From Candidatus Ozemobacteraceae bacterium (lineage in GTDB: Bacteria; Muiribacteriota; Ozemobacteria; Ozemobacterales; Ozemobacteraceae): a DNA stretch of 51,578 nt. Where the stretch lies: contig DAOSOK010000013.1 in NCBI GenBank assembly GCA_035373905.1, forward strand, positions 1 to 51,578, given 5' to 3'. Each line of letters starts with the position of its first letter. Positions within the stretch are counted from its first letter, which is position 1. The notes under the pieces are model-generated. The model was not told the origin of the DNA and made no database searches. It was given only the letters and a program-made list of their open reading frames with translations. This document shows positions 21 through 41,072 of the stretch, in pieces. The translations under genes were made by a program, and so were the position numbers.

Positions 21-84
21 CCGTTCGTGCTGAGCTTGTCGAAGCACGAAAGCTCACGCCCTTCGACAGGGTCAGGGCGAACGG
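21..84. repeat. Copy 1 of a roughly 62-bp intergenic imperfect-hairpin element (core TGTCGAAG-N16-CTTCGACA with extended flanks CCGTTCG...CGAACGG). An inverted copy lies at 12924..12985.
   Basis: By-eye alignment of 21..84 against the reverse complement of 12924..12985 gives about 52 of 62 identical bases. Both copies are in non-coding DNA upstream of, or between, genes. Confidence 0.6.
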
Positions 85-167
85 TTGGTTGTCATTCTGC
101 AGGACTCAATACCGGCGCCTTCTCTTCACGAAAGACGACGGCAAGGTCCACAGGATGACTCCGCACA

Positions 168-183
168 CATGATATATATCATG
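168..183. promoter_or_regulatory. Perfect 16-bp AT-rich palindrome CATGATATATATCATG, followed by TTATATATATTT, upstream of the GGT-fusion gene. Candidate operator or -10-containing promoter segment.
   Basis: Seen directly in the sequence. It is sharply AT-rich in an otherwise GC-rich window. An AAGGAG ribosome-binding site follows at 213..218. Confidence 0.35.
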
Positions 184-197
184 TTATATATATTTCC

Positions 198-2648
198 TTG
201 AAAACCTCAATCAAGGAGCTGACGTTGTCTCCTCAAGTCGTATGTCACGATGTTCCCCTGCCCATGGGAAACGCCCCACACAAACATCCGCACATCACGG
301 GGAGGGCGCTCCTCGTCGCCCTCGCTCTGATCCTGGCCCCCGCGGCAAGTTTTTCCGGTCCCGAGAGGGTTCTGGTGGCTTCGGGGAGCTTCGGCGCGGT
401 CGCCACCGCCAACCCGCTGGCGACCCGGGCCGCCCTGAAAATCCTCGAAAGAGGCGGAAATGCCGTCGATGCAGCGGTGGCGGCCGGATTCGTCCTGGGG
501 GTTGTCGATCCATCCGCTTCCGGGCTCGGCGGGGACGGCTTCGCCCTGATTCGCCTTCCGGACGGCACCATCGACTCCTGGGATGGATCCGCCTGTCCCA
601 CGGCCCCGACCAGACGTTTGTCGGCGGGAACCGCCGGTCGCAGAAGAGCGGAACTCGCCTCCTCCGCGATTGGACTGCCCACCCTTCCCGGGTTGTTGCT
701 GACCATTCGCGAGAACTACGGAACCGAACGCCTTCCTCCTCTGCTGGCGCCGGCCATCCATCTGGCACGGGAGGGATTTCCCTGCTCAGCCAACCTGGAA
801 AAAGTCATCGCCCACAATCTTCAGCGGTTGAGGGACTCCTCTGCGGTGGAACTTTTCTACCGTGGAGAGCGCCCGATCCGCGCCGGCGAGATTCTGAAAC
901 AGAAGGCGCTGGGAGACACCCTGTGCGAACTGGCCCGGGAAGGGAAAGCCTGGTTTTACGTCGGGGCCGGTTCCCGCAAGATCCTGGAGGATATGCGCCT
1001 GCGCGGGTCGCGATATTTCGCTGAAGATCTGGCCGGATACCAACCCCGAAAGTCTCCGCCCCTCTCACTCGTCATTGGCCCCTGGCGATTGGCGGGAACA
1101 CCGTTGCCGTCCTCCTCTGTTGCGGTCATGGCGCTGACCGAATCGTGGACCCGTGCCGGACTCGACCCACTCGAACACTCGCGTCTGGACGACGCCCTTC
1201 CCGTGTTGCAGAGCATTCTGCGGCTGACACGGCAACGGTTGTCGTCCTGCGCTTCCAGGCCGGACCTGTTCCTGGCCCTGAACCGCATCGGAGCGAACCG
1301 GCTTGCATCCCCCATTCCGGCGCCTCTCGTGCAGGAAGAGCCGCAGAGCGCCACCCACCTCGTTGTCTGGGACCGCAACGGAATGATCGTTTCGATGACG
1401 ATGTCGCTGAGAACCCCCTTCGGAACGGGAGAATATTCGCCCCTCGGCTTTTTCTACAATTCTGATTCCCCCGCTGATGCCGCGCCCATCTCCCCACATT
1501 CCCCCATCCTGGTCTTGCGAGACGATCTTCCCGTGCTCGCCCTCGGAGGGTCGGGGGGGAACGGGATCGTGTCGATTCTCGCGGCAATCCTGGCTTCCTT
1601 CTTTCACCACCAGAACCTGCCGCGAGCCGTCAACGCCCCACGATTCTCCGCCACCGAGCAGGGCAGCGTCGTCCTGGAATGGTCTCCCCGCCTCGGAGGA
1701 CTCGAGCGTATCCGGGAAAACAGGAAATCCGTGACCGTGGAAATTCCGGGGAGCGACTGGTTCGGATTGGTGTCGGGCATCGCCAGCCAGGGACGCTCCT
1801 TGCTAGCGGTGGGAGATTATCACCGAGATGGCTCTGCAGGAGCGGTCGGCCGCGATCCCGATGCTCCACGCACGTTCGTCATCGCCGCAATGGTCTATCG
1901 CGAGAGGGGCTTGGATTCCGTGGCTCTCGCGCAGCCCGTAGTCTGCCCTCGCCAGACCACCACCGACTGGAGCGGTCCCGGAGAGACGCGCCTGTTTGGA
2001 GCCAACCGAAGGCTCGCCGTCGATTTTCCTCTCCCCGGAGGAGCCCTTCTGGCAACAGCCGTTGTGACCATCCACCCGGATCTTCCGGCACATGCATCGG
2101 GAGCTTGGGACGCCCCGGAACGTTGGTCGAAGCCGCCCCGACTGGCAAGCAGGGAGCAGGAATTTCTGAAAAGAATCCCCACCGGGCTTTCTCCGCGCGC
2201 CCGTGTCGATTGGCTGATGGTCGAAATCGGCCTTCGGATTCCGTATGCGGCTGAAAAGAGCAAGATGAACGGCGAGGATCTGTTGCGGAAAGGGCGGGGA
2301 GATTGCAGTGGAAAGGCCAGGCTTTTCGAGGACATGGTGCGCTCCTTCGGGATTCCTTGCCGGCTCGTTGGAGGGGTGATTCTGAAAGAGGGTATCAACG
2401 AGAAAACCCATATCTGGAACGAGGTCTTTCTCGACGGCAAGTGGGTATCTGTTTGCACTGTGAACCATCTTTGCGGTCGTCTGCCCGCTACCTGGCTGAT
2501 CCTGCGCTACGGAGACGCCGGAACCCTCGAGGATCCCGGAAAGGTTCTGTTTCGCACCAGGGAAAGGCGGCCTGGGAAGTCGCGGAAAGCCTCTGAAGGC
2601 ATCCCTCACGTGACGCCGCGTGACAGGCCGGGTGGCCGATCCGGTTGA
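198..2648 (+). CDS. Secreted gamma-glutamyltranspeptidase (GGT) fused to a C-terminal transglutaminase-like cysteine-protease-fold domain.
   Basis: The N-terminal half has the GGT signature ATANPLATRAALKILERGGNAVDAAVAAGFVLGVVDPSASGLGGDGFAL and the small-subunit region SATHLVVWDRNGMIVSMTMSLRTPFGTGEYSP. The C-terminal part has a TGc-like core, GDCSGKARLFEDMVRSFGIPCRLVGG...THIWNEVFLDGKWV. The signal peptide (MGNAPHKHPHITGRALLVALALILAPAASFSG) begins at the ATG at 264. The start is uncertain among TTG 198, TTG 225 (AAGGAG 6 nt upstream) and ATG 264. Confidence 0.75.
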   Translation: MKTSIKELTLSPQVVCHDVPLPMGNAPHKHPHITGRALLVALALILAPAASFSGPERVLVASGSFGAVATANPLATRAALKILERGGNAVDAAVAAGFVLGVVDPSASGLGGDGFALIRLPDGTIDSWDGSACPTAPTRRLSAGTAGRRRAELASSAIGLPTLPGLLLTIRENYGTERLPPLLAPAIHLAREGFPCSANLEKVIAHNLQRLRDSSAVELFYRGERPIRAGEILKQKALGDTLCELAREGKAWFYVGAGSRKILEDMRLRGSRYFAEDLAGYQPRKSPPLSLVIGPWRLAGTPLPSSSVAVMALTESWTRAGLDPLEHSRLDDALPVLQSILRLTRQRLSSCASRPDLFLALNRIGANRLASPIPAPLVQEEPQSATHLVVWDRNGMIVSMTMSLRTPFGTGEYSPLGFFYNSDSPADAAPISPHSPILVLRDDLPVLALGGSGGNGIVSILAAILASFFHHQNLPRAVNAPRFSATEQGSVVLEWSPRLGGLERIRENRKSVTVEIPGSDWFGLVSGIASQGRSLLAVGDYHRDGSAGAVGRDPDAPRTFVIAAMVYRERGLDSVALAQPVVCPRQTTTDWSGPGETRLFGANRRLAVDFPLPGGALLATAVVTIHPDLPAHASGAWDAPERWSKPPRLASREQEFLKRIPTGLSPRARVDWLMVEIGLRIPYAAEKSKMNGEDLLRKGRGDCSGKARLFEDMVRSFGIPCRLVGGVILKEGINEKTHIWNEVFLDGKWVSVCTVNHLCGRLPATWLILRYGDAGTLEDPGKVLFRTRERRPGKSRKASEGIPHVTPRDRPGGRSG

Positions 2649-2815: not shown

Positions 2816-2890
2816 AGGCTCGTGGCGCAGTTTGGTTAGCGCACCACGTTGACATCGTGGGGGTCGGCGGTTCGAGTCCGCCCGAGCCTA
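2816..2890 (+). tRNA. tRNA-Val (anticodon GAC).
   Basis: Cloverleaf folded by hand. Acceptor arm AGGCTCG/CGAGCCT, D arm GCGC...GCGC, anticodon stem CCACG/CGTGG with loop TTGACAT (anticodon GAC), T arm GGCGG-TTCGAGT-CCGCC, discriminator A. CCA is not encoded. Confidence 0.85.
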
Positions 2891-7141: not shown

Positions 7142-8440
7142 ATGGCTAAGAATGCTAAGTCGCAGAACCTGTCCATCATGATGACGGACATCCAGGGCTA
7201 CTCGACGACCGCCGCGACCAGTTCCCGCAACGAGATCATCGCCCTGATCAGACGGCACAACCAGTTGATGGTTCCCGTCATCGAGTTTTACGGCGGAACC
7301 ATCATCAAGTCGATCGGAGACGCGTTTCTCTGCACGTTCGTCAGCGCGACCGACGCCGTCATCTGCGCCATCATCATCCAGCTGCTGCTTCGCGAATACA
7401 ACCAGCGCCAGAAAGATGAAAGCCAGAAGCTCAACCTCCGCGTCGTCGTCCATTCCGGCGACGTCTCGATCGAGGGAAACGACATTTTCGGCGACGCCGT
7501 GAACGTGACGGCGCGGATCGAAGGACTCCCCTGCTTCCCGGGCGGTTCGATCGGCATCAGCGAGATCACCTACATGCTGATGGATAAAAATGAGATCGCC
7601 GTCGAGAAGCTCGGCCCGCAAACCCTGAAGGGCATACCGAACCCGGTCACGGTCTACTCCGTACCCCTCGAGAAACAGAAACTCACGACCCTGCCGACCC
7701 ACCTGCTCGAGCTGGTCGAGAAAGTCGTGGCGGGCCGAGCAGAATCGTCGGGCATCGCCGGCTCGACCGCGGAGTGGCAAAAATCGATCGTGAAGTTCCT
7801 CCAGGAAAAAAACTGGGGCGACAACCTCGGCAAGGTCCAGAAGCAAATCGGCCAGAACATCGGCCAAGTCCAGACGAAGCTCGTGCAGACGTTCGGCCAG
7901 AAGACGGTGCTCGAACAGGGAAAAGGCCGCGCGTTCTCCGATGCTTCCCTGGGGGTTCGGGTAAAATGCTTCCTCATCGACCTCGTGATCCTGGCCGTCC
8001 TCACTGCGATTCTCTGGATCGGCTGGTGGCCTTTGCAGCGCATCGTGTATGGTTCTAGATCGATCGACTGGAACGCCTTCTCCAAATTGCGGGGGAACTC
8101 ATCGAGCCTGTACGACTACGATGCCGACACCGGGGAATACAGACGCAAGCAGGGCACCCTCGAATGGATCGTCGATCTCAACGTCCGGGCGCCGATCGCC
8201 CTGTACATTCTATACTTTGCAATATTCTGGCGTATGAAAAGCGCCTCCCCCGGTCAGATCGCCGGCCACTCGGCCGTCATCATGGCCGACGGGCGGCCGC
8301 CGACGCTGGCGGAAGCGCTCAAACGCGCAACGATTTTCGTTTTCACCCTGATCCCCTTCGGGATCGGCGGCCTGGCGATTTTCTTCGGGAACAGGCAGAC
8401 CCTCTGGGACAAGTTCTGCTCTTCACGCGTCGTCGAGTGA
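7142..8440 (+). CDS. Class III adenylate/guanylate cyclase catalytic domain fused to a C-terminal RDD-family membrane domain.
   Basis: Cyclase-homology-domain motifs MMTDIQGYSTT, SIGDAFLCTF, RVVVHSGDV and IFGDAVNVTARIEG. The C-terminus, RVKCFLIDLVILAVLTAILWIGWW...ADGRPPT...RVVE, has 3 TM segments and an RDD pattern. GGGAGA ribosome-binding site upstream. Confidence 0.7.
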   Translation: MAKNAKSQNLSIMMTDIQGYSTTAATSSRNEIIALIRRHNQLMVPVIEFYGGTIIKSIGDAFLCTFVSATDAVICAIIIQLLLREYNQRQKDESQKLNLRVVVHSGDVSIEGNDIFGDAVNVTARIEGLPCFPGGSIGISEITYMLMDKNEIAVEKLGPQTLKGIPNPVTVYSVPLEKQKLTTLPTHLLELVEKVVAGRAESSGIAGSTAEWQKSIVKFLQEKNWGDNLGKVQKQIGQNIGQVQTKLVQTFGQKTVLEQGKGRAFSDASLGVRVKCFLIDLVILAVLTAILWIGWWPLQRIVYGSRSIDWNAFSKLRGNSSSLYDYDADTGEYRRKQGTLEWIVDLNVRAPIALYILYFAIFWRMKSASPGQIAGHSAVIMADGRPPTLAEALKRATIFVFTLIPFGIGGLAIFFGNRQTLWDKFCSSRVVE

Positions 8441-12800: not shown

Positions 12801-12923
12801 GTATCCCAGTGTAGCACACTCGCACAGCACCGATCATCTTCTCGGGCAGGGATTACACATGCATCATTCGCCATCACGGTCTCGTCGCGATGCGTTCTAT
12901 CGAGTTCTGCAGCATTCCTCCCG

Positions 12924-12985
12924 GTCGCCCTGGGATTGTCGAAGGGCGAGAGCCTTTCGTGCTTCGACAGGCTCAGCACGAACGG
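12924..12985. repeat. Copy 2 (inverted) of the roughly 62-bp imperfect-hairpin element, lying between the HK and RR genes.
   Basis: See copy 1. The core is TGTCGAAG-ggcgagagcctttcgtg-CTTCGACA. Confidence 0.6.
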
Positions 12986-21653: not shown

Positions 21654-22835
21654 TTATTCGAGACTTCTGATGGCGTCTTCCGCCGCCTCGCGCGTTTCAG
21701 GGTCGGGATCGAGGATCAGGACGCGGCGCCAGTGGTCGATCGCCTGCGTGCGCTCGTCGAGCTTGTACCAGGCGACGCCGATATTGAATTCGGCCTCGTA
21801 ATACTTCGGGTCGAGCTCGATCGCCTTTTCCCACCATTTCAGGGCGCCGCGCCAGTCTTCGCGTTTCTCCCGGATGTTGCCGAGGGTGAAGAAAAGCGTG
21901 CTGTCCTGGAATCCACGCGCGTAAAGATCGGTGAGAAGCCTGTCGGCCCGATCGTACTGGCGGTCGAAATACCAACACCTGGCAAGGAACAGCAGGTCCT
22001 TGTTGCCGAGACTGCCGCGCTCGGCATACGGTTCGAGCATCTTCTGCGCCAGGCCGTATTGCGAGAGTTCGAAGGCCTGGCGGGCGAGTTCCAGCGCGTC
22101 TTCCTTCTCGAGCCGCGACGTATCGCCTATTCGGGCGATCGCGTCGCCGGCCCCCTCCGTATCGCCAAGGCGGCGCCTGACCATCGCCTGCAGGAGGGAG
22201 ATTCTCGGTTCGCCCGGGAAGGCGACGACCGCCTTCTCGATGAGGCTTCGCGCGGCTTCGAGCCGCTCGGCCTCGATCAGGAATTTCACGAGCTTCACGG
22301 TCCCGTCGATGGGCGGAAGAGACGACGCGCTCTGTTCCATCAGTTTGCCGAGATCCGGGTCGCACAGAACGGCGAGCTCGGAAACTTGTTCGTTTTTCAT
22401 CACAAGACGGGGAGCGGCGACGTCGGCGGCATCGACCGTGAAACACAACGTTCCGCGGCTCTGCGTTCCCGGGCTCATATCGAACGGCCTGGCGAGACAG
22501 TCGGGATTTTCCATGGCGGCGGGGGAATAGGTTCCGCTCATCCTCAGGGTATAGTCCTTGAGCGGATCGACCGCAAACGAACGGGTTCCGGTGTTCACGA
22601 AGGTAAGCTGGATTTCGACCTTGTCCTGCTTCGCCCCGGTACCGAGGCCGCCGGTGAACGGCGTACGCCGAAACTCGTTCACGCAGACGACGATCCCGTC
22701 GGGGCCGATGACGTCTTCACCCTGCAGGAACAGGGCGGCCGCAGCGGCGGCGGGAAAGAGGCCGCACGAGCTCAGGAGTACGAGGGCAGCCGGGACAAAG
22801 GTTCGAAAAGCCGATCGTAACGACATGGCGTTCAT
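21654..22835 (-). CDS. Secreted TPR-repeat protein.
   Basis: Signal peptide MNAMSLRSAFRTFVPAALVLLSSCGLFPAAAAA. Multiple TPR units in the C-terminal half. The ATG at 22835 is preferred over the ORF start at 22976. Confidence 0.6.
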   Translation of the reverse strand: MNAMSLRSAFRTFVPAALVLLSSCGLFPAAAAAALFLQGEDVIGPDGIVVCVNEFRRTPFTGGLGTGAKQDKVEIQLTFVNTGTRSFAVDPLKDYTLRMSGTYSPAAMENPDCLARPFDMSPGTQSRGTLCFTVDAADVAAPRLVMKNEQVSELAVLCDPDLGKLMEQSASSLPPIDGTVKLVKFLIEAERLEAARSLIEKAVVAFPGEPRISLLQAMVRRRLGDTEGAGDAIARIGDTSRLEKEDALELARQAFELSQYGLAQKMLEPYAERGSLGNKDLLFLARCWYFDRQYDRADRLLTDLYARGFQDSTLFFTLGNIREKREDWRGALKWWEKAIELDPKYYEAEFNIGVAWYKLDERTQAIDHWRRVLILDPDPETREAAEDAIRSLE

Positions 22836-38933: not shown

Positions 38934-41072
38934 ATGAAACGCACGTATCTGCAGGACGAGGCGAACACCCACTACAACCTCGGTATCGCCTATTACACGA
39001 AGGGACAGTATGAACTGGCCATCTCGGAGTGGATCCAGTCGCTGATCAAGAATCCGCAGAACGGCGAGGCGCGCTTCAAGCTCGGCGTCGCCTACTACCA
39101 GCTCAACCGCATCGACGAAGCCCTGAAGGAATGGGAGATGGCGGTGCAGCTCGACCCGCGCAACTTCGAGGTGCTGCACAACCTCGGCATCGCCTACTAC
39201 AACAAGGGCGACGACTCGAAGGCGATCGAGAATTGGGAACTCTGCCTCGAAATCAAGCCGCAGGATCCCGAGATCCATTTCAAGCTCGGTATCGCCTACT
39301 ACAACCTCGGCAAGGAAGACCGCGCCATCACGCTCTGGGAAAAGGGCACCAACCTCAACCCCGAGGATTCCGACATCTTCTTCCGGCTCGGCGTCGCCTA
39401 TTACAACAAGGGCCTCGACGACAAGGCCGTGCTCTCGTTCTCGAAGGCGATCGAGCTGAACCCCAAGAACTCCGAGGCGCACAACAATCTCGCCATCGTC
39501 TACTACCGCCTCGAGATGTACCCCCAGGCCATCGACGAGTGGAAGAAGGCGCTCGCGCTCAGCCCGCGCCAGCCCGAGATCTACAACAATCTCGGCAACG
39601 CCTACAGCAAGCTCAATCAACACCGGGAGGCGATCGAGATCTGGCAGAAGATCCTCGAGATCACGCCGCAGAACGCCGAGGTGCTGTTCAAGCTCGGCTC
39701 GGCCTACGGCAAGCTCGACGATCTCGACAAGGCCATTGAATACTGGAGTCAATGTATCTCCGTCAACCCGAACGACATCGAGGCGCAGTTCAACCTCGGC
39801 GTCGCGTTTTACAATAACGGCAACTTTAAAAAGGCCATCACCTACTGGAACACCGTCCGCGAGAAGCGCAGCGAGGACGCCGACATCTGCGAGAAGATCG
39901 GCAACGCCTACTGCGGCCTCGAGGACTTCGCCGAGGCGGCAAAGTTCTGGAACCGCGCCGTGTCCTACATGCCCGACGACGCGCAACTGCACCACAAGCT
40001 CGGCATCGCCTATTCCAAGCTGAACAAGACCCAGGAGGCGATCTTCCAGTGGCAGAAGTCGGTCGAGCTCGACCCGAACCACTTCGAAGCGCACCACAAT
40101 CTCGGCATCGCCTTCTACAACCTGCAGCGGTTCGACGAGGCCCAGAAAGAGTGGGAAAAGGCCCGCGAGCTGAGCGGCAACGACCCCGACATCTACTTCA
40201 AGCTCGGCCACGCCTACCGCCAGAAACGCCGCCTCGACGAGGCGATCGCCTCCTGGAAGAAGGCGATCGAGCTCGATCCGAGCAACTCGAACGCCCACTT
40301 CGTGCTCGGCAACGTGTATGACGAGAAGGGGCTGATCGACGACGCCATCCTCTCGTGGCGGCGCGTCGTCGAGCTGTCGCCGAACGACATCGACGCGCAC
40401 AACAACCTCGGCATCGCCTACTTCCAGAAGAACCTGTTCGACAAAGCCATCGCCGAGTGGGAGGACGCGATCCGCATCACCCCCGAGAACGGAGAGCTGT
40501 ACAACAAGCTCGGCATCGCCTACATCAAGATGGACCTGTTCGACAAGGCCGTCGAGTGCTGGGAAAAGGCCCTCAAATACAAGCCCGAGGACGCCGACAT
40601 CCTCTCGAACCTCGCGACCGCCTACCACAACCGCGAGATGTACGACAAGGCGATCGACATCTGGAAGCGCGTCATCAAGTACAACCCGCAGGACGCCGAG
40701 GCCCGCAACAAGCTGGGCATCGCCTACTACAACAAGGGCATGTACGACCAGGCGATCGAGCTGTGGAAGAAGGCGATCGAGCTCAACCCGAAGGACGCCG
40801 CCGCCTACTACAACATCGGCACCGAGGAGTTCGAGAAGGGTCGTATAGCGGAAGCTATAACAGCCTTCCGCAAGGTGCTCGAGATCGACCCGAAGTTCAA
40901 CCAGGTGCATTACAACCTGGCGATCATCTACGCGCGCAAGCGCCAGTTCGGCGACGCCGTCGAGTCGGCCCGCCGCTACCTGCAGATCAGCCCGACGGGC
41001 GTCGAGGCCGACAACCTGAAAACCCTGATCGACCAGTGCGAGCACGAACTGGAGCAGAACGCCGAGGTCTGA
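38934..41072 (+). CDS. TPR protein with about 20 very regular tandem 34-aa repeats.
   Basis: Reiterated consensus A..NLGIAYYNKG..D.AIE.W.KA.EL.P...E across 712 aa. Confidence 0.85.
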   Translation: MKRTYLQDEANTHYNLGIAYYTKGQYELAISEWIQSLIKNPQNGEARFKLGVAYYQLNRIDEALKEWEMAVQLDPRNFEVLHNLGIAYYNKGDDSKAIENWELCLEIKPQDPEIHFKLGIAYYNLGKEDRAITLWEKGTNLNPEDSDIFFRLGVAYYNKGLDDKAVLSFSKAIELNPKNSEAHNNLAIVYYRLEMYPQAIDEWKKALALSPRQPEIYNNLGNAYSKLNQHREAIEIWQKILEITPQNAEVLFKLGSAYGKLDDLDKAIEYWSQCISVNPNDIEAQFNLGVAFYNNGNFKKAITYWNTVREKRSEDADICEKIGNAYCGLEDFAEAAKFWNRAVSYMPDDAQLHHKLGIAYSKLNKTQEAIFQWQKSVELDPNHFEAHHNLGIAFYNLQRFDEAQKEWEKARELSGNDPDIYFKLGHAYRQKRRLDEAIASWKKAIELDPSNSNAHFVLGNVYDEKGLIDDAILSWRRVVELSPNDIDAHNNLGIAYFQKNLFDKAIAEWEDAIRITPENGELYNKLGIAYIKMDLFDKAVECWEKALKYKPEDADILSNLATAYHNREMYDKAIDIWKRVIKYNPQDAEARNKLGIAYYNKGMYDQAIELWKKAIELNPKDAAAYYNIGTEEFEKGRIAEAITAFRKVLEIDPKFNQVHYNLAIIYARKRQFGDAVESARRYLQISPTGVEADNLKTLIDQCEHELEQNAEV

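Follow-up and report, generated by a model that had tools for sequence, protein, structure and literature searches.

A probable lineage-specific pseudoenzyme in a Riflebacteria-restricted family of GGT-like proteins fused to an RloB-like transglutaminase module

What becomes of a gamma-glutamyltransferase (GGT) when the threonine with which it cuts itself and its substrates reads as alanine, and what does the protein still do if a transglutaminase-like core (TGc) domain is fused to its end? These questions are raised by a gene near the start of contig DAOSOK010000013.1 (assembly GCA_035373905.1, positions 1 to 51,578) of a Candidatus Ozemobacteraceae bacterium, an uncultured representative of the phylum Riflebacteria; this stretch of 51,578 nucleotides as a whole is the window, and the product of the gene is here called the window protein. 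Here we report that the gene encodes one member of a Riflebacteria-restricted family in which a GGT-like N-terminal nucleophile (Ntn) hydrolase is fused to a TGc module. The protein is predicted to be exported, and we consider it probable that its hydrolase half is a pseudoenzyme in this genome. Residues are numbered from ATG264 (794 residues); adding 22 gives the numbering of the longest, 816-residue translation.

The fusion itself is genuine. A Pfam scan, as proposed in an earlier note made from the DNA alone, found in one chain both G_glu_transpept (PF01019; E 1e-66, with 226 bits where the gathering threshold is 27) and Transglut_core (PF01841; E 2.4e-16, with 60.4 bits where the threshold is 23; residues 670-752 in the 816 numbering), and GGT chains of the Protein Data Bank (PDB) match both the large- and the small-subunit regions. 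Ten orthologues (P0002-P0011; 35-53% identity), drawn from Riflebacteria or unnamed assemblies independent of each other, have both domains and align end to end, and an AlphaFold2 (AF2) model of the full length, built on a 72-sequence alignment, is a single compact protein with a mean predicted local distance difference test score (pLDDT) of 91 and a predicted template modelling score (pTM) of 0.92. The C-terminal 241 residues modelled by themselves reach a pLDDT of 91.8. A frameshift joining two genes, a hazard raised in the earlier note, was ruled out by the ten orthologues and the continuous, confident model. A full-text literature search found no paper on this GGT-like plus TGc architecture. 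A neighbour-joining (NJ) tree built on the GGT domain pairs the window protein with P0002 as its sister and interleaves fusions with stand-alone forms of about 530 residues, which suggests that the TGc module has been lost repeatedly within the family.

The decisive residue lies at the junction between the two GGT subunits, which in the window protein reads Q-S-A-T-H-L-V-V-W-D. In phmmer comparisons with the PDB, residue 2 of the mature small chains that span this junction, including B. subtilis 3a75_B, B. licheniformis 4ott_B and 5xlu_B, and CapD 3g9k_S, aligns with Thr364 (T386 in the 816 numbering), and therefore residue 1, the nucleophile, falls on Ala363. For the intact orthologue P0002, whose small-chain matches add E. 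coli 2dbu_B, H. pylori 2nqo_B and human 4gg2_B, residue 1 falls on the first T of T-T-H. Among full-length matches in the PDB, two engineered precursor mimics, 4y23 (T399A) and 2e0w (T391A), come out on top for the window protein, with alanine aligned on alanine. T-T-H was present in all 59 of the next-best homologues scanned, and the nucleophile column of the 72-sequence alignment holds Thr in the other 71 of 71 and Ala in the window protein alone; its codon, GCC, is one base from ACC (Thr). Judged from these alignments, the loss is private to the window protein and not a trait of the fusion family. The earlier note had proposed Ala at the autoprocessing and catalytic Thr, and this placement is upheld by the small chains of B. 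subtilis, B. licheniformis and CapD and by the E. coli precursor 2e0w.

The same replacement has been made in the laboratory. Autoprocessing and activity were both abolished in the GGT mutants T391A of E. coli, T380A of H. pylori and T353A of Geobacillus, and 2E0W (T391A) and 4Y23 (T399A) are uncleaved precursors with the P-segment filling the cleft (PMC8062742). E. coli T391A (2e0w), B. licheniformis T399A (4y23) and H. pylori T380A have the same Thr-to-Ala change in the same column as the window protein; they differ in being laboratory mutants of intact enzymes, whereas in the window the change arose in nature and is accompanied by further decay of the active site and by the loss of a loop.

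That further decay is apparent from a leave-one-out conservation test on two alignments, one of the 11 fusion proteins (A1) and one of 48 Riflebacteria members (A4). In A1, 41 small-subunit columns do not vary among the other ten proteins, and the window protein deviates at 10 of them (other members 0-3); it deviates at 4 of 44 in the large subunit (others 0-5) and at 0 of 18 in the TGc region, a concentration in the small subunit with a Fisher's exact p of 1.7e-5. A4 gives 10 deviations at 32 near-invariant small-subunit columns, where 43 of the 47 others have none and the maximum is 3, and 2 at 34 in the large subunit, within the range of the relatives. The private substitutions are T363A, L380M, T381S (the E. 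coli T409 equivalent), G383R (the N411 equivalent), H385P, Y402S, G407A, K412H and N438I. To these is added a 15-residue in-frame deletion that takes out the substrate loop with the counterparts of Q430 and D433 in E. coli, at the site of the small subunit's sole internal dip in AF2 confidence (residues 401-410). At the E. coli recognition sites, the window protein has R114 replaced by S, N411 by R and S463 by P, the Q430/D433 region deleted and S462 kept; the equivalents of the oxyanion-hole residues G483 and G484 are present, and that of T409 is Ser.

Identity of the small subunit to its orthologues is normal overall, as is identity domain by domain, so that the fold would have been kept while constraint on the catalytic site has gone, as expected of a pseudoenzyme. 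In light of the alanine at the nucleophile position, the clustered active-site changes, the loop deletion and the mutagenesis of homologues, the GGT half is most likely an unprocessed and inactive scaffold. The earlier note's suggestion of a non-processing or inactive GGT half is strengthened accordingly by the clustered small-subunit changes, the deletion and the homologous Thr-to-Ala mutants.

The C-terminal module tells a different story of conservation, with no deviation in the test above. Its AF2 model consists of a beta-rich domain, then helices and a papain-like core. The TGc motifs are G-D-C681-S-G-K-A-R-L-F, which includes the GDCSGKARLF quoted in the earlier note, T-H716-I-W-N-E-V, and W-V-S-V-C, which ends in Cys731. 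The candidate triad is Cys681 (nt 2304-2306), His716 (2409-2411) and Cys731 (2454-2456), the last at the canonical Asp position, which was placed by profile alignment to relatives with Asp there; among the fusion proteins these residues are conserved in 10/11, 11/11 and 11/11, respectively. The Cys-His-Asp triad that the earlier note had taken as the mark of a TGc domain is accordingly replaced by Cys-His-Cys, in an RloB-type subfamily that Pfam labels 'inactive transglutaminase'. A zinc-site reading of Cys-His-Cys was rejected on geometry, since in a papain-like site the two cysteines would be expected to lie on opposite faces of the His imidazole. In P0009 (L012 8001-10334) it is the TGc nucleophile Cys that is replaced (G-D-R-N-D-N) and the GGT T-T-H that is intact, a mirror image of the window protein.

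By structure, the best Foldseek matches of the module in the PDB are a putative cysteine protease of C. hutchinsonii (3isr, 2.6e-11), TgpA (6g49, 4.9e-05), TglA (9crn) and LapG (4fgq), the four spanning E values from 2.6e-11 to about 1e-3. They have the same fold with canonical Cys and His; they differ in sequence (11-17% identity) and in having the canonical Asp where the fusion family has an invariant Cys. A PDB sequence search with the C-terminal profile gave matches at chance level alone (the RGS7 DEP region; TgpA at E 0.27).

By sequence, the complete module is confined to the fusion family, with 11 matches below 1e-30 in a profile search of 1.84 billion representative proteins. The next-best matches come from membrane proteins of about 525 residues and cover their TGc cores (Pfam Transglut_i_TM/Transglut_core plus 7TM_transglut, a seven-transmembrane (7TM) domain), some of which carry a fused RimK-like ATP-grasp domain; the gene of one relative, P0125, adjoins an ATP-grasp gene. 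Aligned by hhalign with 13 of these TGc-7TM proteins, the module matches with a probability of 99.95% (E 2.5e-38) over 225 columns (12-236 against 50-288), a span that covers the entire periplasmic domain, beyond the TGc core. This profile evidence makes the C-terminal module a homologue of the periplasmic domain in the RloB-type 'inactive transglutaminase' proteins, a type that has been the subject of a genetic study in P. aeruginosa (PMC11957051). The RloB type (PF14400 + PF01841 + PF14402) and the window module have in common the beta domain, the helices and the TGc core, together with the motifs G-(D/S)-C-x-G-K-(A/S)-R-L, R-L-V-G-G, T-H-x-W-x-E and W-x-P-(F/V)-(C/D)-P-x-N; the window protein differs in lacking the 7TM part (no PF14402 match), ending past the TGc core, and in having a GGT-like hydrolase fused instead.

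The Cys in the third triad position is also found outside the fusion family. Among the 142 nearest relatives the combinations at the Cys, His and third positions are C-H-D in 60, C-H-C in 36, S-H-C in 19 and A-H-C in 8, and the third position in P0124-P0262 is Asp in 73 and Cys in 68 of the 141 with a residue there. Most of the proteins in which the nucleophile Cys has given way to Ser or Ala belong to the Cys-third group: about 30 of its 68 members have lost it, compared with about 7 of the 73 with Asp. By these alignments, Cys for Asp is a recurrent subfamily trait, often accompanied by nucleophile loss.

The GGT half also stands apart from characterized enzymes as a family, and not only in this one member. 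Classical GGTs (E. coli 2dbu, B. subtilis 3a75, B. licheniformis 4ott; MEROPS T03, PF01019) are the best PDB sequence matches to the window protein, at 1e-29 to 1e-40 for the large subunit, and share the Ntn fold and domain order with it; their T-T-H junction, assisting Thr, first oxyanion Gly and signal peptide are shared by the family. The window protein differs from them by its Ala nucleophile and a C-terminal extension of about 260 residues. The difference that concerns the whole family is at the residues equivalent to R114, N411 and D433, which in classical GGTs hold the alpha-carboxylate and alpha-amino groups of the gamma-glutamyl moiety: in 47/47 intact Riflebacteria members R114 is replaced by Ser, N411 by Gly and D433 by Asn or His (E. 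coli numbering), while the T-T-H junction, the assisting Thr and the first oxyanion Gly are retained. Against TIGR00066 the window protein scores 180 bits and its intact relatives 175-227, about half the cut-off of 357.85.

With the gamma-glutamyl-binding residues replaced and the scores below the TIGR00066 cut-off, the family is not, on sequence grounds, classical GGT, and the substrate of its intact members is probably something other than glutathione or a free gamma-glutamyl compound. The earlier note's 'full GGT' joined to a TGc domain therefore stands as to the two Pfam domains in one chain and falls as to a functional GGT, and its proposal of gamma-glutamyl linkages as the target of both halves is put in doubt by the replaced recognition residues. 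There is precedent for such a change of chemistry: actinobacterial GGT homologues of the 4-alkyl-L-proline pathway are described as using the PF01019 Ntn Thr in non-glutathione reactions (PMC5519988). In these homologues, unlike in the window protein, the nucleophile is kept.

Based on these observations, we propose that the family consists of a divergent GGT-superfamily Ntn-hydrolase joined through a beta-rich domain to an RloB-like TGc (papain-fold) module. Orthologues would autoprocess immediately before T-T-H to give a large subunit and a small subunit bearing the TGc module, and the resulting enzyme would act on an amide substrate outside the classical free gamma-glutamyl compounds. The window protein would instead stay a single uncleaved chain of about 85 kDa, without Ntn-hydrolase activity. 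Its GGT scaffold and TGc module would both still be under purifying selection, and any remaining role, whether binding or Cys-dependent chemistry, would therefore fall to the TGc module, with the GGT half as an inert support. We infer the lack of processing and activity from the mutagenesis of homologues, and export and continued TGc function likewise go beyond what is directly observed.

Several points weigh against this proposal. Ser362 and Thr364 flank Ala363, so that from the sequence alone a register-shifted nucleophile is conceivable; a shift of one residue to Thr364 is nevertheless unlikely, because E. coli T391A retains the adjacent T392 and is still unprocessed. T381S alone would not be disabling, since Ser occupies the T409-equivalent column in 13/24 other GGT homologues, if not otherwise within the family. 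An intact open reading frame (ORF) in a gene of 63% GC is by itself a weak sign of selection, and the available copies of the gene may all stem from one microbial population. The biochemical support comes from homologues outside the family. Finally, with Cys in place of Asp and closest relatives labelled inactive, the surviving TGc half may also be non-catalytic.

The genomic surroundings bear on whether the gene is simply decaying. In 6/8 related loci a homologous secreted Secretin_N protein (one domain, about 255-282 residues) is encoded directly 3' of the gene, beside the fusions P0002, P0003, P0006, P0009 and P0011 and the stand-alone P0036; these partners are 24-37% identical pairwise. 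No homologue of the Secretin_N partner was found in the 51.6-kb window. The window gene is flanked by a repeat, at the end of the contig, and by a gene for tRNA-Val, a typical site of rearrangement, and this copy has lost its usual operon context. The repeat, of about 65 nt at window 21-84, recurs inverted at 12921-12985, the arms being 97% and 81% complementary, and probably explains why the long contig starts where it does: the gene lies at the start of the sole long contig retrieved, and the corresponding Logan contig begins 25 nt further in. The repeat reads through as ...PFVLSLSKHE..PFD..., resembling a dispersed intergenic repeat.

A relocated pseudogene, with its operon partner lost, both halves non-functional and the frame held open by recency and high GC, would account for this location and the missing Secretin_N neighbour, as well as for the lost nucleophile, the nine other changed conserved residues and the deletion; its NJ branch is also slightly longer than that of its sister P0002. 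We nevertheless consider it unlikely. Across 2.4 kb there is no frameshift or stop, a good Shine-Dalgarno sequence and a promoter-like site are kept, the TGc region shows none of 18 possible deviations and the large subunit 2/34 (or 4/44), and per-domain identity is normal. Neutral decay would spread changes over the gene, whereas those seen here cluster in the catalytic centre, as in a pseudoenzyme.

At the other extreme, the protein could be a machine of two working enzymes devoted to poly-gamma-glutamate or to gamma-glutamylated polymers of the envelope, a role that the earlier note had envisaged; its GGT half would be CapD-like or poly-gamma-glutamate-hydrolase-like, and its TGc domain would make or break gamma-glutamyl-lysine bonds. 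Both domains do come from superfamilies that include gamma-glutamyl-bond enzymes. CapD of Bacillus anthracis (3g9k) is a GGT-family poly-gamma-D-glutamate transpeptidase/depolymerase, with a polymeric, non-glutathione substrate, and RimK, whose likeness in the TGc relatives would favour the same idea, is an alpha-L-glutamate ligase. RloB-type TGc relatives are found beside or fused to RimK-like ATP-grasp ligases (PMC11957051). Both CapD subunits are detectable homologues of the window protein (3g9k_L 4.7e-22, 3g9k_S 5.8e-08), but classical GGTs outscore them, and CapD itself is without a TGc module. The window copy, moreover, has an Ala nucleophile and a degraded active site, the family is without the R114, N411 and D433 equivalents, and the TGc triad is without Asp. 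No poly-gamma-glutamate synthesis genes (cap/pgs, capB/pgsB-type) were seen in the first 12.6 kb of the window or in the eight related loci, and no ATP-grasp (RloC) or retropepsin (RloA) genes in the loci read. Neither residues nor neighbouring genes thus lend support to the dedicated poly-gamma-glutamate pathway, and we regard a working machine of this kind as highly improbable.

It is scarcely credible that the Ala arose in assembly or consensus calling, or represents a minor allele, and hides an ordinary active member with Thr. A single base change from ACC to GCC would suffice and the metagenome assemblies have about 10x coverage, but the DNA of ENA ERZ761562 NODE_120 (metaSPAdes, 10x coverage) and of the Logan SRR4236788 contig is identical to the window at every base compared, the NCBI protein agrees, and the same active-site region holds nine other private conserved-site substitutions and the 45-nt in-frame deletion, more than an error in one base could yield; the linked changes and the base-for-base identity of two assemblies rule out a consensus error. 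Exact-match scans of metagenome contigs with the nucleophile codon region, its first base set to N in search of a Thr allele, and with the upstream region gave no match. A contig scan with generic GGT motifs (GGNAVDAA, SNSGLGGDG) returned 80 unrelated GGT loci, none of Riflebacteria. P0036, an intact stand-alone member from an Ozemobacteraceae metagenome-assembled genome (MAG), was weighed as a same-genome paralogue and not confirmed, its accession block being HOY and that of the window protein HOT.

Features of the gene and of related loci are collected in Table 1. The single uninterrupted ORF of 198..2648 on the forward strand, with its predicted signal peptide, agrees with the one secreted 816-residue protein described in the earlier note, and can be read from TTG198 (816 residues), TTG225 (807) or ATG264. 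The last is the annotated start of HOT28100.1 (P0001; 'MAG TPA: gamma-glutamyltransferase [Candidatus Ozemobacteraceae bacterium]'), an exact match to the 794-residue product. TTG198 is merely the first in-frame start past a stop codon, and ATG264 is without an AAGGAG-type motif upstream, unlike TTG225; from these signals TTG225 is likely the true start, and at least as good a one as ATG264. All three products contain the signal sequence LLVALALILAPAAS followed by F at the predicted cleavage site. It forms an isolated N-terminal helix (residues 13-24) in the AF2 model and has a hydrophobic equivalent in most full-length orthologues, and the product is accordingly predicted to be exported to the periplasm or outside.

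Table 1. Positions of features in the window and in related loci (residues numbered from ATG264)
Feature	Sequence	Position	Strand	Remarks
Sigma-70-like promoter match, ATGACT-16-TATCAT	window	155..182	+	consensus scan; match to consensus alone
Shine-Dalgarno AAGGAG (213-218), 6-nt spacer, TTG225	window	213..227	+	direct sequence reading
GGT-like/TGc fusion coding sequence	window	264..2648	+	stop TGA 2646-2648; 794 residues from ATG264
Predicted signal peptide	window	264..350	+	basic n-region, h-region LLVALALILAP, c-region A-A-S then F; sequence reading
GGT large-subunit equivalent	window	366..1349	+	residues 35-362; PF01019 and PDB large-chain alignments
GGT small-subunit equivalent	window	1350..1853	+	residues 363-530; decayed at active site
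Codon GCC, Ala363 (Ala385 in 816 numbering)	window	1350..1352	+	position of Ntn nucleophile/autoprocessing Thr (E. coli T391)
15-residue (45-nt) in-frame deletion	window	1458..1466	+	between ...FFYNS and DSPADA...; A1 columns 530-544
Beta-rich domain between GGT and TGc core	window	1860..2078	+	residues 533-605; AF2 strands 4-71 of C-terminal construct, pLDDT ~93; hhalign
Helical region and TGc (papain-like) core	window	2079..2573	+	residues 606-770; PF01841, AF2, Foldseek
Basic low-complexity C-terminal tail	window	2574..2645	+	residues 771-794; unconserved in 11-fusion alignment; predicted disordered, pLDDT <50 for 777-794
tRNA-Val(GAC)	window	2816-2890	+	168 nt 3' of fusion gene; T-run after it
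GGT-like (with or without TGc) and Secretin_N pair	L003	8001-11227
GGT-like (with or without TGc) and Secretin_N pair	L005	8001-11102
GGT-like (with or without TGc) and Secretin_N pair	L006	6001-8394
GGT-like (with or without TGc) and Secretin_N pair	L010	3236-6579
GGT-like (with or without TGc) and Secretin_N pair	L011	8001-11738
GGT-like (with or without TGc) and Secretin_N pair	L012	8001-11145

A perfect palindrome of 16 nt, CATGATATATATCATG, lies upstream of the fusion gene at 168-183; it overlaps the -10-like hexamer and could be an operator. Downstream, a strong promoter-like site (TTGACA-17-TAAATT, 2774-2802) precedes the tRNA gene, beyond which lies a SpoU methylase gene. In the related loci with longer flanks a conserved protein of about 465-517 residues usually comes next on the opposite strand, and often 5' there are HAMP-cyclase pairs, a protein binding cyclic nucleotide monophosphates (cNMP), or a cyclase with T2SSE ATPases; the pairs are two HAMP-adenylate/guanylate cyclase genes of about 960 codons each with overlapping stop and start codons. 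The window itself encodes a 432-residue protein with Guanylate_cyc and RDD domains (7142-8440, +), which together with the cyclases beside the orthologues suggests that these genomes are rich in genes for cNMP signalling. Elsewhere in the window, 38950-40830 holds at least 16-19 units of 102-nt (34-residue) repeats within a coding region, with the periodicity of tetratricopeptide repeats (TPR), and an inverted match to this array at 21756-21845 points to another TPR gene on the opposite strand.

For the organisms concerned, the first consequence is one of annotation. Members of this family are labelled everywhere as plain 'gamma-glutamyltransferase', and glutathione or gamma-glutamyl metabolism inferred from that label in Riflebacteria is probably wrong, because the family is without the residues that define gamma-glutamyl recognition. 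The C-terminal homology to the RloB type links the family to an envelope-stress system of Pseudomonas, a link that is suggestive only. It is tempting to go further and read the fusion as a 'Rosetta stone', in that a GGT-type amidase is joined to the same periplasmic module as is found in RloB-type proteins near RimK-like ATP-grasp ligases: RloB-type modules would then recognise or process glutamyl- or peptide-modified envelope molecules, and the GGT-like/TGc protein with its Secretin_N partner would form an undescribed extracytoplasmic amide-remodelling system of Riflebacteria, encoded in many cases beside cyclase or cNMP-binding genes. We hold this to be a doubtful extension of the data; if it were true, the window copy would be a natural separation-of-function variant, with the hydrolase dead and the TGc module intact.

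The window protein is thus best described as a lineage-specific pseudoenzyme in a Riflebacteria-restricted GGT-like/RloB-like fusion family. If this prediction is right, it represents a natural GGT-superfamily pseudoenzyme whose catalytic centre has been dismantled while the fold and the fused TGc module were kept, and it would provide a ready separation-of-function allele with which to study the role of the TGc module.

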